A DNA stretch of 61,188 nucleotides from Candidatus Nealsonbacteria bacterium (GCA_016207115.1 JACQQI010000026.1:1-61188); one strand, 5' to 3'. Positions 7,989-57,683 are shown, counted from the first letter of the stretch. Notes: generated by a model not told the origin, from the letters alone. A program made the numbers and translations.

Positions 7989-8831
7989 TTAGATTTTGAA
8001 TAATCGGCGGGCATTTTCCGTCGTTATTCGGGCAACCTCTTCATAGCTCACTCCCTTTATTTTGGCAATCTCTTCGACGACAAAACGAACAAAGACGGGT
8101 TCGTTCCTCTCTCGGTCCGCTCGAGGCGGAGTTAAATAAGGAGCATCCGTTTCCACGAGTGTTTTTTCTAAAGGCGCGGCCTTAATTATCTCTGGCCAAT
8201 CAATTCCCGGAATCTGCCGGAAAATAATTCCGGTGAAACCGAGATATAGTCCTAAGCCCAGATATTCCTTCGCCTGCTCAACCGTTCCGGTAAAGCAGTG
8301 GATGACGCCACCCGACTCATGGCGGGGCTGACTTTTCAGGGTCTCAATCAGATCCGAGTGAGCCGAACGGCAATGGAAAATGATCGGCCGATTTAATTCC
8401 GCGGCCAAGCCCATTTGCTCTCCCAGGGCTTTTTTCTGTAAAGACTGAAACTCTTCCAGTCGGGCCTTGGTTTTGGGTTTGTAGTAATAATCCAGGCCGA
8501 TTTCGCCGATGGCCACCACTCTTTGCGAGCTCCGGGCCAATTTGCGATAATCTTCAATATTAAACTCTCCCAGTCTTTCCTGGCCAATCAACTCTTCCGG
8601 ATCCAGCTTGTTTTTCATTAAATGACCCGTAACGTGAATTGGGTGTAGGCCGATCGCAGCAAAAACGCCTTGAGGATATTTTTCGGCCAGCTCAACTGTT
8701 CTTCGGCTCGTTGCTAACTGCGAACCGACGTTGACGACCCAGACGTCATTATCCAAGCAACGCCGAATAATCTCGTCGGCGTCATTTTGGAAAGCCTGAA
8801 AGTTCAAATGAGCGTGGGTATCAATCAGCAT
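7989..8831 (-). CDS. TatD-family metal-dependent hydrolase/DNase
   Basis: 280 aa. MLIDTHAHLNF, GEIGLDYY, IFHCR and ETDAPYL motifs. The start ATG lies inside repeat copy A. Confidence 0.85.
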   Translation of the reverse strand: MLIDTHAHLNFQAFQNDADEIIRRCLDNDVWVVNVGSQLATSRRTVELAEKYPQGVFAAIGLHPIHVTGHLMKNKLDPEELIGQERLGEFNIEDYRKLARSSQRVVAIGEIGLDYYYKPKTKARLEEFQSLQKKALGEQMGLAAELNRPIIFHCRSAHSDLIETLKSQPRHESGGVIHCFTGTVEQAKEYLGLGLYLGFTGIIFRQIPGIDWPEIIKAAPLEKTLVETDAPYLTPPRADRERNEPVFVRFVVEEIAKIKGVSYEEVARITTENARRLFKI

Positions 8832-8870
8832 AGCGAGTACGATATATCGGGCGGTGTACCGCCCGCTATG
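8829..8870 (-). repeat. Family-1 structured palindromic repeat, copy A
   Basis: Plus strand reads CATAGCGagtaCGATATATCGGGCGGtgtaCCGCCCGCTATG. Outer arms CATAGCG/CGCTATG, inner hairpin GGGCGG/CCGCCC, palindrome CGATATATCG. It nearly fills the tatD / DUF475 intergenic gap, and its terminal ATG is the tatD start codon. Confidence 0.85.
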
Positions 8871-8874
8871 AAAC

Positions 8875-9789
8875 TTAAGAGTTGTTTAAAAGAATCCGAG
8901 AGCGCCAGAAAGCGACCCCGACCAAAAAGAAAGTGACTAGGGTGGGCAGGTAATCCGGCAGATTCAGGCCCAAGCTCTCGACAATCATGAAAATTCCCAG
9001 AAAACCGATCGAAGTCATGGCGCCATTCTTTAAAAATCTGTATTGGGCTACCCTATCGATCCCTTTGATGGTCAATTCTCTGACCACCAGAGCGCCCAGG
9101 CCGTTGCCGATCAAGATTAAAGGCAGAGAGGTGGTAAAAGCAAAGGCGCCGACGACGCCGTCCAAGCTGAAAGAAGTGTCGAGGACTTCCAGATACATTA
9201 ATTTGGAAAAATCCGACAGATGCGTGTCGCCCGTCAGCAGTTTTTGTTCTTGTTTTTGCGCCTGTTCCCGAAAGCCATAGAGAATGAAAAACAGGGCGTT
9301 GCCGATGGCCGCCGACAGCATCAGCAGGGGCGTGCCGCGGGCGATGTATAAAAGGCCAACGAGCAAAAGCGCGGCAAAAGCGAAAAACCAAATGCCGAAA
9401 TCGGCCGAGATCAGCCGGTCGGGCACAAAGAAGGGTGTCTTTTCCTCCAAGAACAACCAGTGCAGATACAAGAGCAGCAGGAACACGCCGGCGGCGATCA
9501 GGATTAGTCCCTTTCTCGCTTCCAAAAGATCGGCCACGTGAGGGTCGGAAGAAAAGAACATCTGGAAAACACCGCTCAAGCCGATCTCGGGCGCCGAAAG
9601 CCAAACAATGATCATGGGAAAAATTCCCCGGACGATAAAGACGGCCGTGAATATTCCCCAGACCAGAAAAATCTTGCGCCATCTCAAACTCATCGTCTTT
9701 AAGACGTGGGCGTTGACGATGGCATTGTCGATCGAATTGACCGTCTCGAAAACGACCAAACCCAGGATGACGATCAGAAAACTGAACAT
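8875..9789 (-). CDS. Integral membrane protein, DUF475 (TerC-related) family
   Basis: 304 aa with multiple TM segments. N-terminal ETVNSIDNAIVNAHVL resembles the DUF475 signature. A TACAAT box lies 6 nt upstream of the ATG, suggesting a leaderless mRNA. Confidence 0.55.
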   Translation of the reverse strand: MFSFLIVILGLVVFETVNSIDNAIVNAHVLKTMSLRWRKIFLVWGIFTAVFIVRGIFPMIIVWLSAPEIGLSGVFQMFFSSDPHVADLLEARKGLILIAAGVFLLLLYLHWLFLEEKTPFFVPDRLISADFGIWFFAFAALLLVGLLYIARGTPLLMLSAAIGNALFFILYGFREQAQKQEQKLLTGDTHLSDFSKLMYLEVLDTSFSLDGVVGAFAFTTSLPLILIGNGLGALVVRELTIKGIDRVAQYRFLKNGAMTSIGFLGIFMIVESLGLNLPDYLPTLVTFFLVGVAFWRSRILLNNS

Positions 9790-9827
9790 TTTAAAATTGT
9801 AGCGAAATCAAGGAAATTAATAAAGAG

Positions 9828-9863
9828 AAGAAGGCGCCCCGGTAATTTCTCGAGACGCCTTCT
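9828..9863 (-). terminator. Hairpin terminator after micro-ORF 1
   Basis: Minus strand reads AGAAGGCG-19 nt-CGCCTTCT followed by TCTCTTTATTAATTT. Confidence 0.5.
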
Positions 9864-9868
9864 GACCG

Positions 9869-9913
9869 CTAGTACCAAAAAGTACAGCGGCCACGGAAGG
9901 ACCAACGGATCAT
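9869..9913 (-). CDS. Micro-ORF 1, 14 aa: MIRWSFRGRCTFWY
   Basis: Hand translation; too short for the ORF track. AGAAAGGAGG lies 8 nt upstream of the ATG. It is paralogous to micro-ORFs 2 and 3, with only synonymous changes in the 7 core codons. Confidence 0.55.
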   Translation of the reverse strand: MIRWSFRGRCTFWY

Positions 9914-10080
9914 CAGCCACTCCTCCTTTCTAAAGAACTAAACTGGCCTTTTGAAAGACCAGTTTGAGAAAGTCGAAGTGATTCTAAGCAACCATTACCT
10001 CAACGCGCCAAAACTGGCCCCTAGAGTCCAGAGGTAATAGTAGTAATATCTAATTTTAATCATCTTGACCCTCATGAAAA
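9914..10080 (-). promoter_or_regulatory. Promoter plus structured leader of micro-ORF 1 (candidate riboswitch/attenuator)
   Basis: -35 TTTTCA (10080..10075), 16-nt spacer, -10 TAAAAT (10058..10053). P1 stem ATTACCTC/GAGGTAAT (10038..10031 with 10001..9994). CTTCGACTTTCT anti-SD. Hairpin AAACTGGTC/GGCCAGTTT (9965..9940). SD at 9930..9921. Confidence 0.5.
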
Positions 10081-10085
10081 TGGGT

Positions 10086-10121
10086 GGAGAGAGCGCCGAC
10101 GATCGACGCAACGCTCTCTCC
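10086..10121 (-). terminator. Hairpin terminator after micro-ORF 2
   Basis: 10-bp stem GGAGAGAGCG/CGCTCTCTCC with a 16-nt loop, followed by ACCCATTTTCA. Confidence 0.5.
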
Positions 10122-10130
10122 GTTTCGCCG

Positions 10131-10175
10131 CTACCCGAAGATATAGGTGCAGCGGCCCTTGTTGGACCAACGCAT
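10131..10175 (-). CDS. Micro-ORF 2, 14 aa: MRWSNKGRCTYIFG
   Basis: Hand translation. AGAAAGGAGG lies upstream with an 8-nt spacer. Paralog of micro-ORFs 1 and 3. Confidence 0.55.
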   Translation of the reverse strand: MRWSNKGRCTYIFG

Positions 10176-10376
10176 TGTTGGATCCTCCTTTCTTCTAACC
10201 CCAGAACGAAAAAACCGGCTTCAGGGGCCAGTTTCAGGAAGTCGAAGTTAAGAAATTCTCTCGCTTTAACTACCTAAAACTAGTCCCGGCCGATGAGCCT
10301 GGTAGCTAAAGTAAAAGAATTTCCTGGTCGACTGATTCATATACAGACATCATAACGCTATTTTTCCTAGTGTCAA
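10176..10376 (-). promoter_or_regulatory. Promoter plus structured leader of micro-ORF 2
   Basis: -35 TTGACA (10376..10371), 16-nt spacer, -10 TATGAT (10354..10349). P1 stem TTAGCTACC/GGTAGTTAA (10309..10266). Intrinsic terminator AAACTGGC-7 nt-GCCGGTTT plus TTTTTT (10234..10209) sits just before the SD. Confidence 0.55.
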
Positions 10377-10389
10377 GGAGGCTGAAGGA

Positions 10390-10419
10390 AAGGGGGCTCG
10401 GCATCTGCCAAGTCCCCTT
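10390..10419 (-). terminator. Hairpin after micro-ORF 3
   Basis: AAGGGGaCTTGGC-aga-GCCGAGcCCCCTT stem. The U-tract is weak (TTTCCTTC). The -35 of unit 2 follows immediately. Confidence 0.4.
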
Positions 10420-10425
10420 CTGGCG

Positions 10426-10473
10426 TCATAGCCATCGCCAGGTGCAACGGCCCCGGTATGACCAACGAACCAT
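10426..10473 (-). CDS. Micro-ORF 3, 15 aa: MVRWSYRGRCTWRWL
   Basis: Hand translation. AGAAAGGAGG lies 6 nt upstream of the ATG. Paralog of micro-ORFs 1 and 2. Confidence 0.55.
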   Translation of the reverse strand: MVRWSYRGRCTWRWL

Positions 10474-10708
10474 TGGCCTCCTCCTTTCTACTCCCAAATG
10501 AGGAGCAGGGAACTAAAAAACTGGCCCTCAAAAGGCCAGTTCTAGAAAGTTGAAGGAAGTAAGTTATTATCTCAACGCGCCAAAACTAGTCTCTGAAGAG
10601 TAAAGAGATAATAGTTGCCACCAGGCTGACATCGGTTTTGACAATTCTTGATTCATGGTTGACGAGGAGACTCTGTATTCATCATAAGCGCGAGCCGGCT
10701 TTTGTCAA
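10474..10708 (-). promoter_or_regulatory. Promoter plus structured leader of micro-ORF 3
   Basis: -35 TTGACA (10708..10703, 2 nt after the ROK stop), 16-nt spacer, -10 TATGAT (10686..10681). P1 stem TATTATCTC/GAGATAATA (10613..10565). Terminator AACTGGCC-7 nt-GGCCAGTT plus TTTT (10541..10515). Confidence 0.55.
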
Positions 10709-10709
10709 A

Positions 10710-11582
10710 TCAGGACAGAAGCGCGCCCAAACAGGCGGCGTGATCGATCGAAGAAGTAACGGCGTCTTGGAACTGGAAAAAACCAATGGTCTCTCTCCGA
10801 TAAATTTCCAGGGCTTGAGGTAAAAACAGGTCGGCGGATTCCTTCAAAGAACCGTTGAGAATAATCCTCTGGGGGTTGTAAAAATAGCTGACTTCGGCCA
10901 AAAACCGGGCTAAGTGACTGATAAAAATATCGATCGTCTTCCGGGCGATTGGATCTTCCTTTGAAACTGAAAAAATCTGTTGGGCCGTCAATTCCTTCTG
11001 GGCCAGCTCCCGATAAATATTGCTGACGCCCTTGCCGGAAAGGAAATCGTCGATCTTGAAAGATTTATAATTAAGCTCTGGAACAATCTCCTCTTTCTGT
11101 GAAATCTCGCCGGCGTTGTTGGTGAAGCCCGGAATCAGCTTCCCCCCAACCACGTAGCTGAGGCGCAGACCCGTGCCCAAATTAATTAGAAGAAAGCTCT
11201 GGCAATCCCGGCCCTGTCCGAATCGACTTTCCGCCAGAGCCATGGCGTTGACGTCGTTTTCGAGAGAAACGCCCAGGCCAAACTCTTTTGAGAATTCTTG
11301 GACCAGCGGGTATTCTGTCGGGCCACCCAAAAGAGAGCTGTGAGTGATGACTCCGTCTTTGACGATACAGTTGAAACTTACCCCCAGCCGGTCGATGCCC
11401 GGCGTTAGGTTGTCGGCGATCATCTTCTTGATCGACCGGAGGAACTCCGGGCTGCCCGCAGGAAAGTCCGAAGTGGCTATCTTATTGCTGGAAAGAAGGC
11501 GATAGTTTCCGTCGAATTTGCAAACTTCAATTTTGGTTCCGCCGACATCCAGAGACAAAAACTTGGCCGGAGGACTAGTCAT
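10710..11582 (-). CDS. ROK-family sugar kinase/regulator-like protein
   Basis: FLSLDVGGTKIEV ATP-binding motif, NDVNAMALAE and LINLGTGL. Start set at ATG 11582 (MTSPPAKF). That ATG overlaps the upstream stop in ATGACTAG, implying translational coupling. Confidence 0.7.
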   Translation of the reverse strand: MTSPPAKFLSLDVGGTKIEVCKFDGNYRLLSSNKIATSDFPAGSPEFLRSIKKMIADNLTPGIDRLGVSFNCIVKDGVITHSSLLGGPTEYPLVQEFSKEFGLGVSLENDVNAMALAESRFGQGRDCQSFLLINLGTGLRLSYVVGGKLIPGFTNNAGEISQKEEIVPELNYKSFKIDDFLSGKGVSNIYRELAQKELTAQQIFSVSKEDPIARKTIDIFISHLARFLAEVSYFYNPQRIILNGSLKESADLFLPQALEIYRRETIGFFQFQDAVTSSIDHAACLGALLS

Positions 11583-13487: not shown

Positions 13488-13512
13488 GATTTAACATAAC
13501 TGTCTGAAATTC

Positions 13513-13542: not shown

Positions 13543-13569
13543 CTACTAGCAGTGGCTTCCTCCTAGCCG

Positions 13570-17769: not shown

Positions 17770-18795
17770 TCACGACTCTTCGACAACTTCTTCCTTTTGC
17801 TTCTTGAGAAAATCGCGGGCAAACTCTAGAGAGATCCCGAGGAGCGGAATTCCCAAAATGGCTCCCCAGATTCCTCCGATGCTGCCGCCGATGGCGACGG
17901 AGATCAAAACCAGCGCCGGCGAGATGCCGATGAACTTTTTGCTCAAGATGGGCAGTAAAACATTGTTTTCGATCTGCTGAATCAGGATGAAGATGACGAT
18001 GGCCAGGACCGCCTTGACCGGACTGGTCAAAGAAAGGAGAAGAAAGATGAGCAGGCCGGTAAAGAAGGGGCCGACGATGGGAATAAAATTAGAAACGGCG
18101 GCCAGAAGGCCGAAGGAGAAGGGATAATCGCTCTGCAAGATCAAAAGAGAGAAATAGACTAGGCCGCCGACAAAAAGAGAGCTGAGGACGCGGCTGAGAA
18201 ACCAACCGCTCACTTTTTTCTGGCATCTCCGCCAGAGATCCAGAGCCATCTCCTCTGAGCCGGCCGGAAACAAAAGGAAAACCGATTTCTCGAAAGCTCG
18301 TTCCTCCAGGGAAAGGAAAAGGGCGAGGAAAATGACGAAAACCGTCGTCAGGATGCCGCCGAAAATGGAGAAGAGGGCGCTGAAAATGTTCTGAGCCGCC
18401 CGGGAAAGAGAACTTTCGGCCAAGTCGACGAAGCTCTCCAGGCTCTGAAAACCCTCGAGTCCCAGACCTCGGAGGGGCGGGGAAAGCTTTTCGAAATACT
18501 GAGAGAAAAACTGGGAAAAATGACTGGCCTCGATGATTAGGAGGGGAACAAAAAGATAAATCAGGATGGCAAAAAGTCCGAAAACGGAAAAGTAAACCGA
18601 GATTACCGCCAAGGTCCGCGGCACCTTCCTTTTCTGTAAATAATCGATGAGCGGGTTGAAGAGCAGAGAAATGATCAGGGCAAAAACGATCAGGAGCAGG
18701 ATCTCGCGCACCCGATAAATGGCGTAGAGAGACGCGACTAAAACCCCCATTCTCAGAATGGTTTCCCAGGAAAACTCAAAAGTGACTTTTTCCAT
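17770..18795 (-). CDS. AI-2E family transporter (PerM/UPF0118)
   Basis: 341 aa, about 8 TM segments, with the conserved region NFIPIVGPF...LIQQIENNVLLPIL. Confidence 0.75.
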   Translation of the reverse strand: MEKVTFEFSWETILRMGVLVASLYAIYRVREILLLIVFALIISLLFNPLIDYLQKRKVPRTLAVISVYFSVFGLFAILIYLFVPLLIIEASHFSQFFSQYFEKLSPPLRGLGLEGFQSLESFVDLAESSLSRAAQNIFSALFSIFGGILTTVFVIFLALFLSLEERAFEKSVFLLFPAGSEEMALDLWRRCQKKVSGWFLSRVLSSLFVGGLVYFSLLILQSDYPFSFGLLAAVSNFIPIVGPFFTGLLIFLLLSLTSPVKAVLAIVIFILIQQIENNVLLPILSKKFIGISPALVLISVAIGGSIGGIWGAILGIPLLGISLEFARDFLKKQKEEVVEES

Positions 18796-18826
18796 TTACC
18801 TTTTTTGGAAGGCTAAGCTTCGCTTA
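18793..18826 (-). repeat. Family-2 intergenic element, copy a
   Basis: Minus strand reads TAAGCGAAGCTTAGCCTTCCAAAAAAGGTAAATG. The first TAA is the M16 peptidase stop and the last ATG is the AI-2E transporter start. Confidence 0.7.
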
Positions 18827-20089
18827 CACCCGTAAAGCTTTAAGGAATTTTCTTCCGTCCTTCTGGGGTCCGACCAGGGCCAGGTTGATCTTTTCGGGCC
18901 GGAATATTTCTCTCGCTACCCTTAGAATATCATCCTGGCCGACTTTGGCAATCTCGGCGAATTCCTGCTCGGGAGTCTGGATTTTCTCATTCAGGACCTC
19001 CTGTAAGCCAAAGTAGGAGGCGATTTCGTCCGAGGTCTCCAATCCCAGGCTCAAGCGGCCCCTCAGGTTCTCCTTGGCTTTTTCCAGTTCTTTCAATCCA
19101 ACCTTTTCTTTTTTCAAGCGCCGGTATTCCCGGCAGATAACCTCGATCGCCGAGCTGACTTTCTCGTTAGCGATACCCGCGCGAGTCAGCAAATAGCCCG
19201 TGTCGGTATAATGTTCTGAAAGAGTGCTGAGGTAGTAGGCCAATCCTCTTTTTTCTCTGACTTCTTCAAAAAGCCGAGAGCTCATCATGCCACCCAGAAG
19301 AGCGACCAGAACGCTCAAGATGTGCTTCTGCGGCGAGCGGGCGCCGAAGGTTCTGACCCCCAAACAAAGATGAGTCTGGTCGGTCTTTTTAAAGCGGCGG
19401 AGGCCGGCGGGCTGCTTTTGCTTTTCCGTTACCCCTTCTTTTTTTAGAACCGGCTTATCGCTCAACTCCCCAAAGGTTCGGGCAATCTCTTCCTGGACGC
19501 CTGACCCCGTCAGCCGCCCGGCCACGACCACCAGAGATCCTCGGCCCACGAAAGATTTCTTCCGGTGTTCAAAAAGGTCTTTTTTAGAAATGCCATTGAC
19601 GCTTTCTTTGCTGCCGATCACCGGCCATCCGGCGGGCTGAGAACCGTACAGAAGCTCCTCCCAGAGCTCTAGGACGGCCAGAGAAGGATTGTCTTCTCTC
19701 ATATTGATTTCTTCCACGATCACTTTTTTCTCCTTGCGGATCTCTTCCGGCAAAAAGAGTGGTCGGGAAACCATATCGGCGATAATCTTGAGGGCCAACG
19801 ACAAATCTTTACTTTCCACCTTGGCCCAAATTCCCAGCATTTCCTTGTCGGTAAAGGCGTTGTAGAGACCGCCCACCGAGTCCAGTTCCCGGGCGATGGC
19901 GGCGGGTTCCGGCCAGTTCCGGGTTCCGCGGAAGACAAGGTGCTCTAACAGGTGAGAAATGCCGTTGAGCTTTTTGGTCTCGTATTTGGAGCCGGTTCTG
20001 GCCAAAAACAAAACCGTCAAGGCGCGGGTGCCCGCCATCGGGAGAAGAAGCAGGCGCAACCCATTTTTAAGAGTGGATCTTTTGAACAT
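18824..20089 (-). CDS. M16-family (pitrilysin/insulinase-like) zinc peptidase
   Basis: 421 aa with the HLLEHLVFRGT inverted zinc motif HxxEH. Confidence 0.85.
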   Translation of the reverse strand: MFKRSTLKNGLRLLLLPMAGTRALTVLFLARTGSKYETKKLNGISHLLEHLVFRGTRNWPEPAAIARELDSVGGLYNAFTDKEMLGIWAKVESKDLSLALKIIADMVSRPLFLPEEIRKEKKVIVEEINMREDNPSLAVLELWEELLYGSQPAGWPVIGSKESVNGISKKDLFEHRKKSFVGRGSLVVVAGRLTGSGVQEEIARTFGELSDKPVLKKEGVTEKQKQPAGLRRFKKTDQTHLCLGVRTFGARSPQKHILSVLVALLGGMMSSRLFEEVREKRGLAYYLSTLSEHYTDTGYLLTRAGIANEKVSSAIEVICREYRRLKKEKVGLKELEKAKENLRGRLSLGLETSDEIASYFGLQEVLNEKIQTPEQEFAEIAKVGQDDILRVAREIFRPEKINLALVGPQKDGRKFLKALRV

Positions 20090-21420: not shown

Positions 21421-23070
21421 TTACTGGACAATTCCCTGTCCTCGAATAAAATTGGTATCGCTCAAAGAATTGCTGTTGAGGCCTTCGGCTTCGGCGGTCA
21501 AAGTTTCCTGGGTCCAGATATCGTCGCCAAAGGCTTTGGCGGGACCAATAATTTCGGCGGCCGAGCCAACCTGAGACGAACTCGGCTGTAGCTGTACCTG
21601 AAAAGAAAGGTTGGGGCCGGTCGAGCCGGCGTCAACTTCACCAACCTCCCAGACGATTTCCCGTGATTGAGAATCGAAGAGGAAATGTGATTCTCGAGGC
21701 AAAAGCTGACCGGTCAGGCTCACGGTCGGAGGCAGGACTGCCTTAACTTTAACATTTCTGAGGTTGTTGTAAAAATTCTTTAACTCCCAGGTCACGGTAA
21801 AAGTCGTTCCCTGGCCCGCCTGGGGCGGCCAGGGACCAGACTGGCCGAAAACTCCTTCGGAGAAATAGACCTTTGAAGCCAGGATCATTTTAGAATTAAC
21901 CTTAACCGAAAATTCTTCCCGAGCCGGAGACAAACTCAAGCTGTCTTTGAGAACCAGGTTCTGGGTCTGGGGTTCGCCCGGCCCTAACTCTTTCTTGAGG
22001 TTGATCCAAAATTCGACCCGGCCCTCTTCGCCTTCGCCCAAAAATCTCAGTTGGGGGTTTTTCTTCCAGTCCCAAACTAAAGATCGGTCGCCTTGATGAT
22101 AGTTGCTCGCTTCCGGCGCCCGCAGGCTGTTGAGGTCGAAGAAATTGCCGTCGAGGCCAACGACCAAAAAGAGGTTTTCGAAAACAGACCCGCCAATGTT
22201 CTTGAAAAAAACTTCGTAGTGGAGAGAATCGCCGGGACTAGCCGAGTAATCCGCCGAACCGTTGACGAGCTGCGAAAGATAGATGGTCGGCTTGATGATT
22301 TCGGCGGCCTTGGTCGCTTCCTTCAATAAAACAAATTTGCCTTCTTGCCAGAGGCCCAGGGTGGCCCGAAAAGTCTTCTGATCCCCGACGTCCCCTTTGA
22401 GACGCCCGGAAACATTGACGCGGCCGCCCTGCGCCTTATTCAAAATAGCCACCGACCATTCGTTCTTTTCTAGGGCCGCGGGCGTGCTCCCGACGAACTC
22501 GAATCCCGCCGGGTACTCTATTTTTACCCTCAGCTGGGAAAGAGGATAATCAATATTGGAAAAGTAGTTCAGCGAGAAGCTAAAATCTTTGTCGGCTTCG
22601 ACCCTCGTCGGTAAGTCCAGATCAAGGGTCAGGGGAGAGAATTTAATGGCCGCGGTCTGGCTCGTCGAGACTTCGTAGCGGGCTTTGAGATTCTTGGGCT
22701 GAAACTCGAGCCAAGCCTTGGCCACCTTCAGCTCGTTCTCCCGGCCCAAAATGCGGCCGGAGAAAGTCAACGTCTCTTCCTCGCCGGGGTAGATATCGTC
22801 CAGGCTCTTTTCCAGGCGCCGCTTTTCTCCCTCAATCAAAGATTCTTCCGGGTACTCGAAAGTCAGCTTGGCTTGAGTGAGGGTGATCTCGCCATTGTTC
22901 TTGTATTTCAGGGTGTAATCAACCCTTTGGCCAACTTCGACCGTCTCTGGTCCCAGGATATCCAGCTTCAAAGCCTCCTTAGAGAAAACGTTTCTCTGAA
23001 AATACCAAAAACCGAATCCCCCTAAGACGAGAACAAAAGCCAGAATTGAATAAACAAGTTTTTTACCCAT
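21421..23070 (-). CDS. Hypothetical membrane-anchored protein with repeated beta-sandwich (DUF11/CARDB-like) modules
   Basis: 549 aa. N-terminal TM segment (LVYSILAFVLVLGGFGFW) followed by repetitive Y.L.Y.N.G-type segments. No catalytic motif recognised. Confidence 0.4.
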   Translation of the reverse strand: MGKKLVYSILAFVLVLGGFGFWYFQRNVFSKEALKLDILGPETVEVGQRVDYTLKYKNNGEITLTQAKLTFEYPEESLIEGEKRRLEKSLDDIYPGEEETLTFSGRILGRENELKVAKAWLEFQPKNLKARYEVSTSQTAAIKFSPLTLDLDLPTRVEADKDFSFSLNYFSNIDYPLSQLRVKIEYPAGFEFVGSTPAALEKNEWSVAILNKAQGGRVNVSGRLKGDVGDQKTFRATLGLWQEGKFVLLKEATKAAEIIKPTIYLSQLVNGSADYSASPGDSLHYEVFFKNIGGSVFENLFLVVGLDGNFFDLNSLRAPEASNYHQGDRSLVWDWKKNPQLRFLGEGEEGRVEFWINLKKELGPGEPQTQNLVLKDSLSLSPAREEFSVKVNSKMILASKVYFSEGVFGQSGPWPPQAGQGTTFTVTWELKNFYNNLRNVKVKAVLPPTVSLTGQLLPRESHFLFDSQSREIVWEVGEVDAGSTGPNLSFQVQLQPSSSQVGSAAEIIGPAKAFGDDIWTQETLTAEAEGLNSNSLSDTNFIRGQGIVQ

Positions 23071-23120
23071 GATAATAAACAGGTTTTTTAATCATGATAA
23101 TAAACAAGTTTTTTACCCAT
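23046..23120 (-). repeat. 25-bp tandem repeat x3 covering the 5' end of the 549-aa gene
   Basis: Minus strand reads [ATGGGTAAAAAACTTGTTTATTATC][ATGATTAAAAAACCTGTTTATTATC][ATGGGTAAAAAACTTGTTTATTCAA]. The first two ATGs open 10-aa ORFs (MGKKLVYYHD, MIKKPVYYHG). The third ATG starts the gene. Confidence 0.85.
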
Positions 23121-23137
23121 AGCGCGAAGCGATATCG
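23118..23137 (-). repeat. Family-1 repeat, half copy J
   Basis: Minus strand reads CGATATCGCTTCGCGCTATG (compare CGATATATCGCTTCGCGCTATAG in copy D). Its terminal ATG is the first ATG of the 25-bp repeat array. Confidence 0.55.
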
Positions 23138-32667: not shown

Positions 32668-32749
32668 TATAGCGAAGACGATATATCGGGCAATTCTGCC
32701 CGCTATAGCGGGCGGTACGCCGCCCGATATATCGCTTCGCGCTATAGCG
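32668..32749. repeat. Family-1 repeat, copy D: two inverted units sharing a central CGCTATAGCG
   Basis: TATAGCGaagaCGATATATCGGGCaattctGCCCGCTATAGCGGGCGGtacgCCGCCCGATATATCGcttcgCGCTATAGCG. Confidence 0.85.
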
Positions 32750-34084: not shown

Positions 34085-34130
34085 CTTCCTCTTTTGGTCT
34101 ACCTCGCTCGCATCGAGGCTAAGACCTCTC

Positions 34131-34488: not shown

Positions 34489-34531
34489 ATAACGGACAGG
34501 GTGCCCGATATATCGGATCTTATCCGTTATA
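34489..34531 (+). repeat. Family-1 repeat, copy E
   Basis: ATAACGGacagggtGCCCGATATATCGgatcttatCCGTTATaa, with arms ATAACGG/CCGTTAT. Confidence 0.65.
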
Positions 34532-34561: not shown

Positions 34562-37060
34562 TCAGAAGAGGCTCTTTTGCTTGCTAATTATTTTTTGTTC
34601 TCCCTGGTTAAAAATTCTGACCCGGCCGTAGAGGCCGTCGTAGCCGGGTTCGATTACCAATCGACCCTCTCTGACTCGAGAAATACCTTCGGCAATTTCG
34701 GGTAGAGTTAGGGCGGTCAGATCAGAGAGACTGGCTTCAGTCAAAATGCTGAACTCGCTGCCCATCTTTTTGATCAAACTATGATATTCTTCCTCAACTT
34801 TCTTGGCGCCCGGCAACAAACCCAGGGCCTCGGCGATGATCTCTTCCAGGGGCACCAGGCTTTTGAAAGGGATTCTCCCGACGGGACTCGAACCTTCGGG
34901 CCGATCCGCCAATTCCTCAACCCGGCTCAGAACGCCGATAGTCAAAGATTTGCCGCAGACCGGGCAGGTTCCGCCAGATTTCTTTGTCTGTTCGGGTGAG
35001 AAGGAAACTTGACAAAGCCGATGACCGTCGTAATGGTATTTGCCCTCTTCGGGAAAAAACTCGATGGTATAAATCAGCTTCAGGTTCTGGCCCATCTTCT
35101 TGATAGCCTTAATGACCTCGGGATAGCTCAGGGCCGCACCTTCAAAAACGTTGGCTTCCCGGCCAATCTTTCGGAGCGAGTGAGAATCGCTATTAGAAAT
35201 CAGGGTGTATTGGTCGAGCGCCGAGAGCCGCCAATTCATCTTCGGATCTGAGGATAAGCCCGTTTCCAGGGCGAAAATGTATCTCGAATAATCCTCGAAG
35301 CACTCTTCGACCGAGTCGAATCCCGACTTGGAACCGAAGACCGAGAACCACGGAGTCCAGCAATTATGGACGGTGGCGAATTCGGTAATATAAGAATTGT
35401 CTTCTTTTACCTCTAGATTAAAAACGTCACCGCGATAACTATTTTTATCTATATTTCTGACCGGCAGGTAGATATAATTTTCATCTATCCAGCCGTTTTT
35501 TCTGATGGTTTTGTAATTTGATTGCGCAAACTCCTTTTCCCTCAAGAGATTAAATTTATCCTCGAAGAAAGATAATCTTGAGAACATGAATAAATCGTTA
35601 TTCGCTGAAATCTTTCTTCCATTTATGAAATGCCTACCTCGTTTTTCATACTGAGCTCTAGTATTAACGTTGATTGACGGTACCACGCCTAACCGCAAAA
35701 GAATAATCTTCATCTGGTTCATCAATGTCCGAGAAACTGTCGAACCGTGGTCTCCACGCCACCATCCCCGGAAGATTTCCACCTGTTTTTCTAACGGTAA
35801 TTCCAACATCCAGGTCGGCAGCATTTTCGAATGGGCCTTTTTATCAGACAAACTGTAGAATAAATGACCAAAAGCGTTGTATAAAATCTTTGAAAAATAA
35901 ATAATCTCGACTCCGCCGACGCCTTCCTTTTGGACAATCCGGCTTGGCTCAATGTCAAATATTTTTTTCATCAAAGACTGGAGATCGGCGATATATTCTT
36001 TTTCTCTATCAGAAAAACAAAATGCGATTGCGTCGCGATTATTAGTATAACCCTCAGATAAATAGTAGCCGACTAAACGACAAAAATCTTTGTCAACCGT
36101 TATCGCTTGAGGCAACCAAGTAACCTTAAAACCAATGGGGGCAATTTTATTTTCTTTAAATTTGATCGGGATCGGATTAACAACTTGAGTCAAATCCAAA
36201 AACTCTTGATCTTTAATGTTCCGGAATCGCGGAAATAGTAAAATATCCCCGATCTTGATTTTATCGGCCGGAATCCATTGCGGTTTTGTTCCTCGAAAAT
36301 ATTCCCGTTTTAGTTGCTCGCCATAATAATTAGATTGTCCCTGATAACAGTCGTTCCGCATAGCCAAATAGGGATGTTCAGGAGTTGTGGCCAAACCCAA
36401 CCTGAAGTAAGACGGTCTAATCGTATAAATCAAGCCGTGATATGCTCTCTTGAGAACGTTTTCTACTCTTTTTGTCTTTCCGGTATGCGTGTAGACAAAA
36501 TCACCGATTTTAATATCCTTAATCTGTCTCATGCCGGTTTTAGAATGAATATAGGCATCGGGCAACAAGCAATGCGCCGGCACGACGACCGAGGCGGGCG
36601 AGAGCTGAAGAATGATTTTGGTCAATTCTTTAGCGTCGATTCCCAAGATCGGCCGGCCATCCGCCTTCAGATTACCCACCCACTCGAGCCGAGAATTGAT
36701 CTTTTCTACCGACTCCAGGCTAGGAGAAATGACCAGGAGGTGAATCTTGCGCACGCGATTGTTTTTGCTGTAAATGCAGCTGATTTCGGTCGTCAGGATG
36801 AAGCGAGTTCCTTCGGCTCCCGCGCCGAAACCATTGTTGATTTTCGCTCGCGTTTTTGGCTTTAATTTAAAAAGACCGGGCTCGGCCGGTTCTAGTCCTT
36901 CTTTTAATTCTTTAAACCAAACGGGATGAGTGAAGTCGCCCGTGCCCAAAAGACTGATACCCTTAACGCTCGCCCACCTGGCCAGATTCTCAAGATTTAT
37001 CTCTTTAGAAGTGGCGCGGGAAAAACGAGAATGAATATGAAAATCGGCGACGAATTTCAT
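34562..37060 (-). CDS. endoQ: Endonuclease Q (PHP-domain, TIGR00375-like) interrupted by an intein
   Basis: 832 aa. Extein N-terminus MKFVADFHIHSRFSRATSK...LLGTGDFTHPVW. Extein resumes at CWTPWFSVFGSKSGFDS. C-terminal zinc motif CPVCGK. The extein total of 429 aa fits EndoQ size. Confidence 0.65.
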   Translation of the reverse strand: MKFVADFHIHSRFSRATSKEINLENLARWASVKGISLLGTGDFTHPVWFKELKEGLEPAEPGLFKLKPKTRAKINNGFGAGAEGTRFILTTEISCIYSKNNRVRKIHLLVISPSLESVEKINSRLEWVGNLKADGRPILGIDAKELTKIILQLSPASVVVPAHCLLPDAYIHSKTGMRQIKDIKIGDFVYTHTGKTKRVENVLKRAYHGLIYTIRPSYFRLGLATTPEHPYLAMRNDCYQGQSNYYGEQLKREYFRGTKPQWIPADKIKIGDILLFPRFRNIKDQEFLDLTQVVNPIPIKFKENKIAPIGFKVTWLPQAITVDKDFCRLVGYYLSEGYTNNRDAIAFCFSDREKEYIADLQSLMKKIFDIEPSRIVQKEGVGGVEIIYFSKILYNAFGHLFYSLSDKKAHSKMLPTWMLELPLEKQVEIFRGWWRGDHGSTVSRTLMNQMKIILLRLGVVPSINVNTRAQYEKRGRHFINGRKISANNDLFMFSRLSFFEDKFNLLREKEFAQSNYKTIRKNGWIDENYIYLPVRNIDKNSYRGDVFNLEVKEDNSYITEFATVHNCWTPWFSVFGSKSGFDSVEECFEDYSRYIFALETGLSSDPKMNWRLSALDQYTLISNSDSHSLRKIGREANVFEGAALSYPEVIKAIKKMGQNLKLIYTIEFFPEEGKYHYDGHRLCQVSFSPEQTKKSGGTCPVCGKSLTIGVLSRVEELADRPEGSSPVGRIPFKSLVPLEEIIAEALGLLPGAKKVEEEYHSLIKKMGSEFSILTEASLSDLTALTLPEIAEGISRVREGRLVIEPGYDGLYGRVRIFNQGEQKIISKQKSLF
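35363..36571 (-). mobile_element. Intein (403 aa) with LAGLIDADG homing-endonuclease domain
   Basis: Residues 164-566: CLLPDAY (block A), TTPEHPY (block B TxxH), LVGYYLSEGYT and FRGWWRGDHGS (two LAGLIDADG-type motifs), VFNLEV...ATVHN followed by +1 Cys (blocks F/G). It is inserted between PAH and CWTPW of the PHP active-site region. Confidence 0.85.
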
Positions 37061-37447: not shown

Positions 37448-37726
37448 TTATAGCTTGTAAACCCGATAGCCGTCTTTGACTTTTTCGTTCACCTTCAATC
37501 CGACCGAATCCCCGGCCTTAGCCTGTTCGATCTTCTGGTGTTCAACCTCCATCGAATCGATCGGTTGGGTGAATGAAGTGCCTTCTCCGCCCTCAATGCG
37601 GATAGTGTCGCCGACCTTCAGGGGCTTGGTCAGATCAACGACGGCCACGCCCACGCGGTCAAAGTAATGAGTCACCTTACCGATTAATTCCCCCTCTGGA
37701 TGAGTTTCGCAAGTACCACAGCTCAT
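37448..37726 (-). CDS. Small EF-Tu-domain-2-like (translation elongation factor-like) protein
   Basis: 92 aa. N-terminal CGTC followed by a beta-barrel-like VGDTIRIEG...AKAGDSVGLKV. The start ATG lies within repeat copy B. Confidence 0.45.
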   Translation of the reverse strand: MSCGTCETHPEGELIGKVTHYFDRVGVAVVDLTKPLKVGDTIRIEGGEGTSFTQPIDSMEVEHQKIEQAKAGDSVGLKVNEKVKDGYRVYKL

Positions 37727-37766
37727 AGCAAGTATGATATATCGGGCGGCGTCCCGCCCGCTATAG
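37724..37766 (-). repeat. Family-1 repeat, copy B
   Basis: CATAGCAagtatGATATATCGGGCGGcgtcCCGCCCGCTATAG. The terminal ATG is the start of the 92-aa gene. Confidence 0.85.
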
Positions 37767-38487: not shown

Positions 38488-38696
38488 GTTGATACCTCAT
38501 TTTACCATACCGGGTAATAAAAACCACAAACCGCGCCAATCGGCACGGTTTCTGGTTGAGAAGGGAGGAATAGTCTTGATGAATTCGGCATGTCTTTTGA
38601 TCCCGCCGGACATGGCAGGAAAGGCGCCCTTAGTCTCCTTCATTAAAACTATTTGTCCTTAGAGAATAGCATCTCGCACCCCCTTCTCGATCCCAG

Positions 38697-38729
38697 TATA
38701 GCGCCCGACGATATATCGGGCAAGTACCG
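38697..38729 (-). repeat. Family-1 repeat, partial copy F next to the tRNA 3' end
   Basis: TATAGCGcccgaCGATATATCGGGCAagtaCCG. The second arm is missing. Confidence 0.55.
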
Positions 38730-38738
38730 TACTTTAAG

Positions 38739-44429: not shown

Positions 44430-45768
44430 GATTATTTCTTAACTTCTCATATTCTTCCCGCACTACCTTCCGATCGTCCCAAAGAATTCTTTGCCCCCCG
44501 GCCAGACACATTGACGGCTCACAGCCCTTGCCAGTAATAATCATCACGTCGCCCGGCTGGGTCAAGCTCAATCCTTTATTTATCGCTGAGCGCCGATCGA
44601 TCACCTTATAGCAGGCAGGCTTGCCTGATATATCGTCCCCGCTATAGACCGTCGGTTGACGTTGGCCCAATTCGACACCCGCCGCGATTTGATCAATAAT
44701 TGCCTGCGGGTCTTCGTCGTAGGGATCTTCATTGGTCAAAATTATCTCCTGACAGTGCTGCCCCGCAATCCTTCCCAACACCGGTCTTTTCCATTTGTCC
44801 CGACCACCGCCGCAAGAACCCAAAATGCAGACTAGTTTTTGAGCAGACGACTGACGATGGGTGCTCGCAACGCGATAAACTTTTTCTAAGGCGTTGGGGG
44901 TGAAGGCATAATCAACAAAAGCCGTAAAAGGACTGGTGATCACTTTTTCCAGTCGTCCGGGCAATCCCTCAACTTTATCCAAGGCCCTCTGGCAAACGTC
45001 TAGACCAATCCCTTGGGATCGAGCCAGGCTGACCGCGGCCAGGGCGTTGTAGATATTAAACTCGCCCAATAATTTCAATCTGAATTCCTGACCATCGATG
45101 ATAAATCTTGATCCATCGACTAAAATTTCGACGCGGCCCGCTCTGACGGTTCGAAGTCCGGGGTTTGAAGAAATCTTCAAGCCGTATCCCCACTTCTCTT
45201 TAGCCGGGAACTGCAAAAAGAATTCACTGTTCTCGTCGTCTAAATTAACAATGTGAATTTTTGAGGTGGCTTTGAATAATTCTCCTTTGGCCCGACGGTA
45301 ATTCTCGAACCCGCCGTGGCTTTCAATGTGTTCTGGACTCAGATTGGTAAAGACGACCGCGTCAAAAGTGATGAAGCGATGACGATGCTGCTTGATGCCC
45401 TCAGAGGTGACTTCCAAAACCAGGTAACGACAGCCGGCCCGAATGGCTCGACTCAAGAAACGCTGAACGAAAAAACGACCGGGCATGGTCATGCGTTTGT
45501 CGTTAATCTCTACCTGGTCGCCGATCTGAAAACGGATCGAAGACAGGGAAGCGGTGGGATACCCGGCTTCAATCAGGATGCGCGAGATCATCTCCACCAC
45601 GCTTGATTTGCCGTTGGTGCCGGTGACGCCGATAACTTTTATCTTCTGGCCCGGGAATCGATAGAATAAAGCCGCGATAAAAGCCAGGGTAAAATGGTAC
45701 CCGCTGATCAAAAAGGATGGCAGAAACCTCTTGGCAATGGATTTTATCTGATACAATAACCCCTTCAT
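44404..45768 (-). CDS. murE: Mur ligase, UDP-MurNAc-tripeptide synthetase (MurE-type)
   Basis: 454 aa. GVTGTNGKSS P-loop and ITGKGCE near the C-terminus. Contains repeat copy I in frame. Confidence 0.8.
   Translation of the reverse strand: MKGLLYQIKSIAKRFLPSFLISGYHFTLAFIAALFYRFPGQKIKVIGVTGTNGKSSVVEMISRILIEAGYPTASLSSIRFQIGDQVEINDKRMTMPGRFFVQRFLSRAIRAGCRYLVLEVTSEGIKQHRHRFITFDAVVFTNLSPEHIESHGGFENYRRAKGELFKATSKIHIVNLDDENSEFFLQFPAKEKWGYGLKISSNPGLRTVRAGRVEILVDGSRFIIDGQEFRLKLLGEFNIYNALAAVSLARSQGIGLDVCQRALDKVEGLPGRLEKVITSPFTAFVDYAFTPNALEKVYRVASTHRQSSAQKLVCILGSCGGGRDKWKRPVLGRIAGQHCQEIILTNEDPYDEDPQAIIDQIAAGVELGQRQPTVYSGDDISGKPACYKVIDRRSAINKGLSLTQPGDVMIITGKGCEPSMCLAGGQRILWDDRKVVREEYEKLRNNHGESKRLS
44607..44647 (+). 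repeat. Family-1 repeat, copy I, inside the murE coding sequence
   Basis: TATAGCAGGCAGGcttGCCTGATATATCGtcccCGCTATAG. In murE it is translated as VYSGDDISGKPACYK. Confidence 0.7.
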
Positions 45769-45770
45769 GC

Positions 45771-45808
45771 TATAACGGCAGGGTGCCCGATATATCGCTT
45801 TGCGCTAT
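45771..45808 (+). repeat. Family-1 repeat, copy G in the murE/uvrB divergent intergenic region
   Basis: TATAACGGCAgggTGCCCGATATATCGctttgCGCTAT. Confidence 0.8.
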
Positions 45809-49856: not shown

Positions 49857-49898
49857 CTATAACGAGTACGATATATCGGGCGGTTTACCGCCCGCTAT
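49857..49898 (-). repeat. Family-1 repeat, copy C
   Basis: CTATAACGagtaCGATATATCGGGCGGtttaCCGCCCGCTAT. It ends 9 nt upstream of the response-regulator ATG. Confidence 0.85.
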
Positions 49899-53040: not shown

Positions 53041-53070
53041 AGTTCATTTTACCCCGGCCGAGTGGCAAAC

Positions 53071-53976: not shown

Positions 53977-54039
53977 TTGACTATTTAAATAAATCGATAT
54001 AGGGTGTAGAAATGTCTCCCAGCTTAATTCTAAATTATA

Positions 54040-55347: not shown

Positions 55348-55381
55348 GCAGAGCTTAGCCTCGAAAAGAGCGGGGTAAAAT
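55345..55381 (+). repeat. Family-2 intergenic element, copy d
   Basis: TAAGCAGAGCTTAGCCTCgaaaaGAGcGGGGTAAAAT. The TAA is the ATPase stop codon. Confidence 0.6.
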
Positions 55382-55588
55382 AAAAACCCCTTCAGGTAGG
55401 GGCATACCCGGACGCCAGTCGCGAGTCTCAAATTTTCCTGAGGAAGATTCTAGTATAAAATACCGGAGTCTCCTTCGCGGAAAATTCTCCCCGAAAGGGT
55501 GCCCCAACCTGAAAAGGCTTTTTAGCTACGACTAGATTAACTCTCTGAGGAGTAATCTCTGCGTAGATTATAACAAACTATTAATACT

Positions 55589-56371: not shown

Positions 56372-56380
56372 TCCAAAGCT

Positions 56381-57115
56381 ATGTCTGGACACTCTCACGC
56401 CAAAACCATCGCCCATCAGAAAGCTATCACCGATCAGAAAAGAGGGCAGATTTTTTCTAAGATGGTGCGGTTGATCACCATCGCCGTCAGAGAAGGCGGC
56501 CCCAACGTTGAGACCAACTACAAGCTCAAGGTGGCCATTGAAAGAGCTCGCTCTTTTAATACGCCGAATGACAATATCGAGAGGGCCATCAAACAGGCTG
56601 GCGGTGGCCTAGAGGGTAAAGAGTTAAACGAATTCCTTTTTGAGGCCTACGGTCCCGGCGGCATCGCCCTGATCATTGAAGGGATTACCGACAACAAAAA
56701 TAGAACTCTGGGGGAAATAAAGCAGATCTTGGCCCAGTACGGCGGCAAACTCGCCCAGGAAGGCTCGGTCCGTTGGCTCTTCGAGAGAAAAGGAGTGATT
56801 GCCCTGATCCTGGAGAATCAGGAAGGTGATTGGAAAAATAAAGAGACTCTAGAACTCAAGGCGATCGAGGCTGGGGCTCAAGACTTCGTCTGGCGAGATG
56901 ATCTTCTCGAAATCCACGTCCCCGTTGACAATCTTCATTCAACCAAGGCCAGCCTAGAAAAAGAAGGGGCAAAGATTGATTCGGCTTCGGCCGACTGGGT
57001 TGCCAAAGACGAATTTCCGATCGCCGAGACGGACCAGAATCTGGCAGAAAAACTTTTCAGCGCCCTCGACGAAAACAGCGACGTCCAAGACACCTATTCT
57101 AACCTTAAAGATTAA
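56381..57115 (+). CDS. yebC: YebC/PmpR-family transcriptional regulator
   Basis: 244 aa. MSGHSHAKTIAHQKA...GGPNVETNYKL. Confidence 0.9.
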   Translation: MSGHSHAKTIAHQKAITDQKRGQIFSKMVRLITIAVREGGPNVETNYKLKVAIERARSFNTPNDNIERAIKQAGGGLEGKELNEFLFEAYGPGGIALIIEGITDNKNRTLGEIKQILAQYGGKLAQEGSVRWLFERKGVIALILENQEGDWKNKETLELKAIEAGAQDFVWRDDLLEIHVPVDNLHSTKASLEKEGAKIDSASADWVAKDEFPIAETDQNLAEKLFSALDENSDVQDTYSNLKD

Positions 57116-57121
57116 CACGCT

Positions 57122-57640
57122 ATGATCGTTCTCGGCATTGACCCCGGCACGGCCACCATCGGCTACGGAGTTTTGAAAACATCCGGGCCGCGGAAGGGAC
57201 AAACTCGTTGTTTGGCTTACGGATTGATCGAAACAACGCCAGACCATCTTTTTCCTCAACGACTGGAGAAAATCAGTCGCGACCTAGATGATTTGATTGA
57301 AAAATATCGGCCGGAATTGATTGCCATTGAAAGTGTTTTCTTTTTTAGAAATCAGAAGACGCTCATTCCTGTCAGCCGGGCCTCGGGCGTCATTATTCTC
57401 GGCGCCGCCAAGAGAAAGGTTCCCGTCATTGAATTTACTCCGATTCAGGTCAAGGCCCGGGTGGCTAACTATGGACGCGCCGAAAAGGAGGAGGTTCAGA
57501 GAAGAATCGTCGAGATCTTGGGACTGAAGAGCGTGCCTCGGCCCGACGATGTCGCCGATGCCCTCGGCGTTGCCCTCTGTGGAGTCTTTTCTCTGACCCA
57601 AAAAGCCATCTCTCCGAAACGCCGCGGCAAAAAGAGTTAA
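57122..57640 (+). CDS. ruvC: Holliday junction resolvase RuvC
   Basis: 172 aa. MIVLGIDPGTATIGYGVL and DDVADALGVALC. Confidence 0.9.
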   Translation: MIVLGIDPGTATIGYGVLKTSGPRKGQTRCLAYGLIETTPDHLFPQRLEKISRDLDDLIEKYRPELIAIESVFFFRNQKTLIPVSRASGVIILGAAKRKVPVIEFTPIQVKARVANYGRAEKEEVQRRIVEILGLKSVPRPDDVADALGVALCGVFSLTQKAISPKRRGKKS

Positions 57641-57644
57641 GAGG

Positions 57645-57683
57645 TATAGCGAGCGAGGTCGCTCGATATATCGTACCCGCTAT
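57645..57683 (+). repeat. Family-1 repeat, copy H
   Basis: TATAGCGAGCGAggTCGCTCGATATATCGtaccCGCTAT. The inner hairpin GAGCGA/TCGCTC covaries relative to GGGCGG/CCGCCC in other copies. Confidence 0.75.

Follow-up and report, generated by a model that had tools for sequence, protein, structure and literature searches.

Family 1, a short palindromic repeat that is probably a miniature mobile element in a Wildermuthbacteria-related lineage

In this work, a dispersed palindromic repeat, here called family 1, was studied in a stretch of 61,188 nt from Candidatus Nealsonbacteria bacterium (the whole stretch is the window below). The window has a G+C content of 50% and is dense in housekeeping genes, which include those for LeuRS, IleRS, ArgRS, MetRS, TatD, PolX, RecO, UvrB, RtcB, RuvC, PBP1, dnaN and SmpB/tmRNA. 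According to a curated gene list, 93.6% of the window is coding and 6.4% (3.9 kb) is intergenic, with about 55 start codons. An earlier note, made from the sequence alone, had listed ten sites of the repeat; all ten were present where it had placed them (Table 1), and family 1 is a real repeat. The core CGATATATCG, with at most one mismatch allowed, occurs 10 times in the window against 1.11 expected, none of 100 shuffles reached 10, and every match falls within a listed copy. Nine of the ten sites lie in the intergenic 6.4% (p = 2e-10), the family occupies about one tenth of the intergenic DNA across the 61 kb, and each strand carries five copies.

A covariance model was built from copies of the window and its relatives and was run on the window with filters off. 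Copies A, D1, D2, E, B, I, G, C and H were recovered at E = 3e-15 to 5e-6, so that nine of the listed copies are strong, the double copy D being counted as two. Copy F, whose left arm is degenerate, was weak (11.9 bits, E = 0.7). J was not detected in this search and was rejected as a full family member. Since J has the 13-mer CGCTTCGCGCTAT and a shortened core in common with D2, it is probably a 5'-truncated fragment comprising the right half. The counts given below refer to 36 full copies defined by a regular expression in the window and its relatives, to the 33 distinct copies of the model, to 31 non-tandem copies, or to 30 copies for the analysis of flanks.

Structure and distribution of the repeat

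The layout described in the earlier note was found again: in the orientation called P, ATAGCG is followed by a stem-loop, CGATATATCG, 4–5 nt and CGCTAT. Full copies are imperfect palindromes of 35–41 nt; TATAGCGG is the start of most of them, and the terminal tag ATAG (or ATAA) is present in all 36. The skeleton is AGCG-hairpin-CGAT-AT-ATCG-(hairpin collapsed to N4-5)-CGCT, and it can be read as an inverted doublet in which one arm has collapsed. Both hairpins are retained in copy E and in a variant resembling it at position 6412 of a relative's locus (L016).

The covariation claimed in the earlier note holds for the inner hairpin, where compensatory changes (G-C to A-T; GGC/GCC to GAC/GTC or GTT/AAC) were found at five of five pairs, 95.7% of the cells are paired, and none of 500 shuffles matched the score; slid controls gave 22–46% paired. 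It does not hold for the outer arms, since ATAGCG and CGCTAT are complementary but essentially invariant and thus provide no evidence of pairing. The hairpin dominates the predicted folds of single copies (–11 to –16 kcal/mol), with modest z-scores of –0.4 to –3. A search of Rfam at the gathering threshold returned only tmRNA and tRNA, with no family matching the element, and the E-value mode gave nothing credible around F and H.

By a pattern scan with one genome per species, the family was found in four other metagenome-assembled genomes (MAGs), namely Ca. Wildermuthbacteria GWA2_46_15, 'bacterium C20_maxbin.116', Patescibacteria KR13_S3.mb.140 and, with one copy, a MAG labelled Saccharibacteria. 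The sampled loci have 38–50% G+C, and in its Mur ligase GWA2_46_15 stands nearest to the window (70% identity). The elements are 90–97% identical between genomes, while the common coding DNA is only 65–71% identical. The negative-control loci came from a metagenome scan with the Mur ligase that was meant for near-identical strains and gave a best match of 56% identity. No copy was present in the 947 kb of these 80 loci from relatives with 47–56% Mur ligase identity, either by the regular expression or by the covariance model, and a scan of viral contigs gave no match. Thus, the family is confined to a narrow Wildermuthbacteria-like clade. The single copy in the Saccharibacteria-labelled MAG is well formed, and its neighbour genes match none of the other sequences compared; horizontal transfer, a binning error or a wrong label is possible.

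Insertion sites and copies within genes

The GWA2_46_15 locus (L101) is syntenic with the window over 57.6–30.9 kb. By comparing orthologous gaps, as the earlier note had proposed, the presence of the element was found to differ between relatives, and its positions are almost never orthologous. L101 is without copies at the counterparts of C, G, B, D and I, and the window has none where KR13 (L012, L018) carries them, between SmpB and ArgRS and upstream of CofD. Only one location is common to two genomes: GWA2 and C20 both carry a copy upstream of rplJ, with junctions 8 nt apart. For copy H, the filled site in the window reads GAGG-TAT[AGCG...CGCT]AT-TGACA and the empty site in L101 reads CAGG-TAT-TGACA, a net gain of 36 nt. 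The reciprocal case is a filled site in L101, TTGCT-AT[AGCG...CGCT]GT-TAGATAC, against the empty TTGCT-CT-TAGATAC of the window; the length of this copy could not be determined, as it contains a nested second mini-repeat. Copy B lies exactly on an orthologous start, which reads TTTACT-AT[AGCG..TGCT]ATG-AGC-TGT (MSCGTC) in the window and ATCAAC-ATG-AGT-TGC (MSCGHC), with no element, in L101. Furthermore, direct tandem arrays with a period of 35–36 nt and the junction CGCT-AT-AGCG occur in L006 (two copies), L007 (three) and L013 (two), and three composite copies have another mini-repeat nested at CGA^TATATCG.

Eight of the 36 copies lie in frame within real genes. Their hosts are the Mur ligase gene of the window and, elsewhere, the genes for MnmA, GlmS (two copies), a NUDIX hydrolase and a DHH protein, a coiled-coil open reading frame (ORF) and a 405-aa ORF, in which the copy stands at codon 2. 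All eight belong to the 38-nt class, with a net gain of 36 nt or 12 codons, as do only two of the 28 others (Fisher p = 1.5e-6). All eight read the core as GAT-ATA-TCG, and they are mostly antisense to the host gene. Copy I encodes about YSGDDISGKPACY, an insert that is missing from all 19 aligned Mur ligase homologues and that falls in a coil or disordered loop of the predicted structure (residues 370–381, predicted local distance difference test score <50). The linker that joins the SIS subdomains of GlmS contains YSEYDISGNSAR two times, encoded by the two tandem copies. Such a pattern is the mark of insertion at random with selection acting on the outcome, and not of a designed regulatory site. 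A further candidate, in L019, was rejected as an in-frame insertion: this 40-nt intergenic copy is stop-free in one frame and merely joins two separate genes, GH-like and glutamate dehydrogenase, by read-through. Several Mur ligase homologues in relatives (P0003, P0014, P0015) are fused to an archease domain, and RtcB of the window overlaps the Mur ligase stop.

Every full copy in the set defined by the regular expression has AT on both sides. Beyond the left AT, T is preferred at –1 (77%, p = 2e-7) and at –2 (70%, p = 7e-6), and the preference of the right flank, for A or T and then a purine, is weaker. The junctions fit three readings: a 34-nt AGCG..CGCT with duplication of AT, a 36-nt TAGCG..CGCTA inserted into A|T, or a 36-nt AGCG..CGCTAT inserted 3' of (T)TAT. 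A symmetric element with TA duplication, of the Correia/IS630 type, was rejected because the empty site of H does not fit it: filled GG-TATAGCG..CGCTA-TTGACA against empty GG-TA-TTGACA is one TA short of TA + TAGCG..CGCTA + TA. The base before the constant ATAGCG..CGCTAT is, moreover, not T in 7 of the 30 copies.

When the element enters at the AT of an ATG, CGCT-ATG remains whole, as in A, B, L004 and L014, and entry at the AT of xATAAT yields CGC-TATAAT; CGCTATAAT is present in 5 of the 31 non-tandem copies. The association with start codons and –10 boxes thus follows from an insertion at AT that regenerates ATG or TATNNT in a genome with about 6% intergenic DNA, and no dedicated start-codon function is needed to explain why the repeat seems to supply start codons. 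Given so little intergenic DNA and about 55 start codons, the insertions at AT that persist will frequently coincide with an ATG or a –10 box. In the earlier note a gene start had been placed at or just after the CGCTAT end, and the terminal ATG of A, B and J had been taken for a start codon. The former is true of A and B, which end in the ATG, and of D1, G and C. It fails for D2, which points toward the terminator of the convergent HD gene, for E in a convergent gap, F upstream of an RNA, H at 455 nt from the next ORF, and I inside a gene. The start codons of A and B stand; in A the terminal AT plus G begins TatD, whose Pfam match starts at residue 3 (MLIDTHAH). The ATG of J opens an ORF of only 10 codons. 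The TANNNT hexamer noted 7 nt before the ATG belongs to the conserved core and spacer of every copy, and is no independent evidence of a promoter.

The surroundings of single copies add some further observations. Copy C lies downstream of a conserved TACAAT box and is therefore probably carried in the 5' untranslated region (UTR). Copy H immediately precedes a promoter-like stretch after RuvC, TTGACAAGATCT(T/C)TTAAGAAATTAAAATTGCT, that is conserved in the window and L101 (TTGACA-16-TAAAAT); about 400 nt without an ORF then extend to the PBP1 gene, and this region may be the promoter of an unannotated RNA or of a long leader, with no credible Rfam match. The TAT end of copy F coincides in position with the –10 of an RNA that is conserved but unannotated. 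Between tRNA-Arg and a LOG gene, about 165 nt are near-identical to their counterpart in L101, while the flanking coding DNA is about 70% identical. At the start of this stretch are a Shine-Dalgarno sequence and an ORF of 7 codons (MLFSKDK); its fold z-score is –4.4, it has no Rfam match, and it probably represents a structured RNA or leader that is not annotated. Three 25-bp repeats in tandem, the outermost of which adjoins fragment J, each contain a duplicate of the start codon of a DUF11-like gene and of its first 7 codons. In comparison with L101, the window has extra genes for an intein/LAGLIDADG-containing protein, RtcB and UvrB.

The second mini-repeat family is about 30 nt long and forms two small hairpins, CCTCGCyCTAGCGAGG followed by CTAAGCnnnGCTTA. 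Its placement differs between the window and L101, it is nested in family-1 copies of L003 and L101, and its latter half forms a 16-nt tandem array in L101. An ORF-poor region beside the ROK kinase and DIT1_PvcA-like genes contains three paralogous units of about 280 nt, each with a hairpin resembling a terminator, the strong Shine-Dalgarno sequence AGAAAGGAGGAG and an ORF of 14–15 codons (MIRWSFRGRCTFWY, MRWSNKGRCTYIFG, MVRWSYRGRCTWRWL); it may be a triplet of small-peptide genes.

Table 1. Positions of family-1 copies and of other features in the window and in loci of other genomes.
Feature	Sequence	Position	Strand	Description
Copy A	window	8830..8869	-	40 nt, 61 bits; between TerC-like gene (stop 5 nt upstream) and TatD
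Fragment J	window	23118..23137	-	right half only, CGATATCG-CTTCG-CGCTAT; abuts 3 x 25-bp tandem repeat
Copy D1	window	32669..32706	-	38 nt; end 13 nt upstream of PolX ATG; forms TTGCCC-18-TATAAT
Copy D2	window	32705..32745	+	41 nt; head-to-head with D1, one AT in common
Copy E	window	34489..34530	+	two-hairpin variant ATAACGG...CCGTTAT in convergent gap; 29.5 bits, fold –16.1 kcal/mol
Copy B	window	37725..37764	-	40 nt, 52 bits; inserted at AT of the start codon of a 92-aa gene
Copy F	window	38698..38737	-	left arm degenerate; directly after tRNA-Arg
Copy I	window	44608..44645	+	38 nt; in frame within Mur ligase gene, antisense to it
Copy G	window	45772..45808	+	37 nt; fills most of 52-nt divergent Mur ligase/UvrB gap
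Copy C	window	49859..49898	-	40 nt; between histidine kinase and response regulator genes
Copy H	window	57646..57683	+	38 nt, 51.8 bits; 5 nt after RuvC stop
Family-1 copy	L005 (CAZKCH010000001.1)	651-687		single copy in 43% G+C MAG labelled Saccharibacteria
Read-through ORF	L019	2-1867		621 aa, GH-like and glutamate dehydrogenase genes joined by a copy
Second mini-repeat	window	18788-18827
Second mini-repeat	window	34092-34123
Second mini-repeat	window	55354-55385
Second mini-repeat	window	57730-57770
Second mini-repeat	L101	1-130
Second mini-repeat	L101	18170-18200
Second mini-repeat	L003	2329-2360
Second mini-repeat	L010	4026-4060
PaaX_M/Cas2-like gene	L003	1304-1876
PaaX_M/Cas2-like gene	L016	4416-4994
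PaaX_M/Cas2-like gene	L007	6684-7217
PaaX_M/Cas2-like gene	L012	7004-7588
PaaX_M/Cas2-like gene	L099	4819-5358		element-free lineage
Triplet of ~280-nt units	window	9790-10720	-	ORF-poor
DUF11-like gene	window	21421-23070	-	549 aa
25-bp repeats	window	23049-23120		three in tandem
Intein/LAGLIDADG protein	window	34562-37060		832 aa; extra relative to L101
Structured RNA or leader (probable)	window	~38505-38675	-	matches L101 14835-15000
RtcB	window	42981-44429		extra relative to L101
UvrB	window	45821-47764		extra relative to L101
Region after copy H	window	57684-58138		promoter-like stretch, then no ORF

Nature of the repeat and alternative explanations

We hypothesize that family 1 is a mobile element, miniature and non-autonomous, of the kind of repetitive extragenic palindromes (REPs) and their paired hairpin form (REPINs), and we hold this reading with good, not complete, confidence. 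It corresponds to one of the three roles proposed in the earlier note, that of a selfish element resembling REPs or transposable elements of the miniature inverted-repeat type (MITEs), and the non-orthologous positions, the reciprocal filled and empty sites, the tandem and nested arrays, the in-frame copies and the narrow clade all argue for it. Because the changes in the hairpin conserve its structure, the terminal tag is ATAG and the skeleton is an inverted doublet, the REP/REPIN system with its REP-associated tyrosine transposase (RAYT) and the IS200/IS605 system were taken as the working mechanism. A transposase encoded elsewhere in the genome would recognize the G+C-rich hairpin and the invariant bases beside it. 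By analogy, this enzyme is most likely of the HUH/Y1, RAYT or IS200/IS605 type and would act on the single-stranded hairpin. Insertion would take place at AT, preferably in the context TT-AT-(A/T)(A/G), and would add 36 nt in the commonest in-frame class. Copies would persist only where they are harmless, that is, in the roughly 6% of intergenic DNA, in protein surface loops, provided that the length is divisible by three and the core is read in the frame GAT-ATA-TCG, and at the AT of ATG or TATAAT, since the AT on the 3' side and the last T of the element would rebuild the signal. The 3' arm of the hairpin, TTGCCC, stands 16–18 nt upstream of the rebuilt TATNNT, and a few copies may therefore act as promoters.

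Several points weigh against this reading. No transposase was found by Pfam scans in the window or beside clusters of copies, where the genes are housekeeping only (arginase, SecA, MreC, SSB, L10, MetK, AlaRS), and a phmmer search with E. coli RayT gave no match (E <= 10) among ORFs of at least 60 aa in 1.17 Mb, of which only about 230 kb came from element-bearing genomes. The tag is ATAG, while those of the REP superfamilies are GTAG or CGTC (PMC3733652). The comparisons of filled and empty sites are all between species, with about 70% protein identity, no polymorphism within a population was seen, the bases duplicated at insertion, if any, are ambiguous, and the identical loop sequences across species could mean functional constraint and not recent spread. 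Five copies per strand is contrary to a pure lagging-strand bias of the IS608 kind (dnaN lies at the right end of the window). In same-strand gaps, moreover, P runs with transcription at 15–17 sites and is opposed to it at 5 (p = 0.02–0.04), and this bias suggests selection at the level of the transcript or the promoter. Some copies, such as D1 and F, may have been co-opted as promoters, or one orientation may be less harmful.

The same bias speaks for a portable promoter module, in which the 3' arm of the hairpin forms a weak –35 (TTGCCC/TAGCCC), the core a spacer of 16–18 nt and the end the TAT of a –10, and which is kept for leaderless or short-leader mRNAs. The –10 of D1 lies 9 nt before the PolX ATG. 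The –10 of F corresponds in position to GATAAT in L101, both being 6 nt before the conserved RNA start GAG(A/G)AGGGGG (TTGCCC-17-TATACT-6-GAGAAGGGGG in the window, TTGACT-16-GATAAT-6-GAGGAGGGGG in L101), and copy G places TATGAT 6 nt before the UvrB ATG. The recurrence of CGCTATAAT is in keeping with this, and Correia elements are known to make promoters at their ends (PMC2649163). However, eight copies lie within coding frames, A, B and the copy of L004 are at operon junctions, C is in a 5'UTR below TACAAT, and D2 and E face convergent ends. Most hairpin arms are poor as a –35 (CCGCCC), promoter-like sites number 17 against 14.5 in shuffles, only D1 and F pass a consensus scan, and the orthologous genes of relatives manage without the element. 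As a general explanation, the promoter module is therefore improbable. The combined terminator and promoter cassette of the earlier note does not stand as a general role: copies lie in genes, in a 5'UTR and at operon junctions, although D1 and F do form promoter-like sequences. An intrinsic terminator was rejected, since the hairpin is followed by GATATATCG or GCTAT and by no T-run; only the hairpin of E was weakly flagged, owing to T-rich flanking DNA.

A cis-acting RNA, whose hairpin, once transcribed, would serve the stability or processing of mRNA or would keep translation coupled at operon junctions by drawing stop and start codons together, would likewise account for the covariation, the dominant hairpin and the favoured orientation, and for A, B and the L004 copy, which stand between a stop and the next ATG with no Shine-Dalgarno sequence, as well as for C in its 5'UTR. 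On the other hand, the compensatory changes are nearly all Watson-Crick and fit DNA hairpins equally well, five intergenic sites are opposed to transcription, and the in-frame copies are mostly antisense. With the modest z-scores, the lack of a matching Rfam family and sites that are not conserved between species, we regard a cis-acting RNA as very improbable. The remaining role in the earlier note, an operator for a dimeric regulator, is hardly tenable, and the same holds for a site bound by a dimeric nucleoid or segregation protein; the protein would recognize ATAGCG / CGATATATCG / CGCTAT. Such a site would explain the invariant palindromic blocks, but the hairpin varies in sequence and length with its pairing retained, so that structure and not sequence is conserved, and the copies form tandem arrays and nested composites, lie in coding frames and have no conserved position upstream of orthologous genes.

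One group of genes would suit either a binding protein or the mover. Multi-copy proteins with a winged helix-turn-helix and a Cas2-like (PaaX_M) part, of about 190 aa and with an N-terminal hydrophobic helix, are encoded beside copies in 4 of 20 element-bearing loci, and in L016 the gene has inverted copies of the element on both sides within 27–61 nt. They are a weak candidate, as the gene is missing from the window, which has the highest density of copies, yet is present in the element-free lineage L099. A bolder proposal is that family 1 represents an ultra-small (34–36 nt) class of mobile element in a Wildermuthbacteria-related clade of the candidate phyla radiation (CPR), with a mover other than the known RAYT or IS transposases, a targeting of AT that does no harm in start codons, –10 boxes and protein loops, and possibly spread between species by natural transformation; we consider this unlikely.

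The REP/REPIN-like reading has several consequences. Genomes of CPR/Patescibacteria are usually called streamlined and poor in mobile DNA, yet here the position of an element differs between sister species, and loops of 12 residues have been added to the essential enzymes MurE-like ligase, GlmS and MnmA. It would mean that a selfish element can survive with almost no neutral DNA, by landing on AT and restoring the ATG or TATAAT that it interrupts. Gene callers will misplace starts and create false fused ORFs at the copies, as in L019. The element is also a sharp marker for typing of the clade and its strains, and it flags promoters that are possibly rewired. Finding the transposase of family 1 would bear on how REP-like repeats move.

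Comparison with known small mobile repeats

Family 1 resembles the REP/REPIN and RAYT system (PMC3733652, PMC3116915, PMC2817692) in being an imperfect palindrome of 35–41 nt, with a G+C-rich stem of 3–7 bp, a loop of 3–5 nt and a short unpaired tag beside the stem, and in being readable as a whole as an inverted doublet of REP-like units. As with REPs, the copies are mostly extragenic, occur in head-to-head dimers and clusters, are sometimes intragenic, and overlap codons of flanking ORFs with their ends; both REP units within genes and stop codons provided by REP ends have been documented (PMC3733652). Unlike in REPINs, one unit has collapsed to CG-N4/5-CG, the total is about 36 nt, the central 10-bp palindrome is invariant, and AT stands at both ends. 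Furthermore, no RAYT was found in the sequence examined, and the host is a CPR/Patescibacteria lineage. The searchable literature holds no report of a REP or MITE in Patescibacteria/Wildermuthbacteria and no description of family 1.

The Correia elements of Neisseria (CREE/NEMIS; PMC2649163) have the same first eight bases, TATAG(C/T)GG, though a match of 8 nt could be due to chance. They too have AT-rich dinucleotide targets, a placement that varies between related genomes, possible promoters at the ends, a transcribed hairpin and no known transposase. However, a CREE is 104–157 bp long, with inverted repeats of 26 bp, an IHF site and TA duplication (PMC2649163), while family 1 is about 36 nt long with inverted termini of 4–6 nt, and a symmetric element with a TA duplication on its flanks is not compatible with the filled/empty pair of H. 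The Rickettsia palindromic elements (RPE; cited in PMC3733652 and PMC1779305) are likewise palindromic repeats that stand in frame in housekeeping genes of a reduced genome and add an apparently tolerated peptide loop. RPE-1 differs in its 100–150 bp (30–50 residues) against exactly 12 codons here, where copies are also mostly intergenic.

The 'peel and paste' transposition of IS200/IS605 elements is comparable in that the hairpin is the likely recognition feature and the two flanks differ in their base preference. In one reading that agrees with the junctions, the element enters 3' of (T)TAT with no duplication and its own CGCTAT recreates the target, and this would explain the direct tandem arrays. 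On the other hand, neither TnpA nor TnpB was seen, the window shows no strand bias, and the element is far shorter than a pair of IS ends. The small dispersed repeats (SDR) of heterocystous cyanobacteria (Elhai and colleagues, 2008) are reportedly mobile hairpin repeats of 21–27 nt that insert into intergenic DNA, genes and each other, and their mobility is reported to have been inferred from filled and empty orthologous sites; their sequence, host phylum and architecture differ from those of family 1. The kind of element is thus already known from REPs, RPEs and Correia elements, and what sets family 1 apart is the ATAG tag, the collapsed doublet of about 36 nt, the AT junction and the CPR host.

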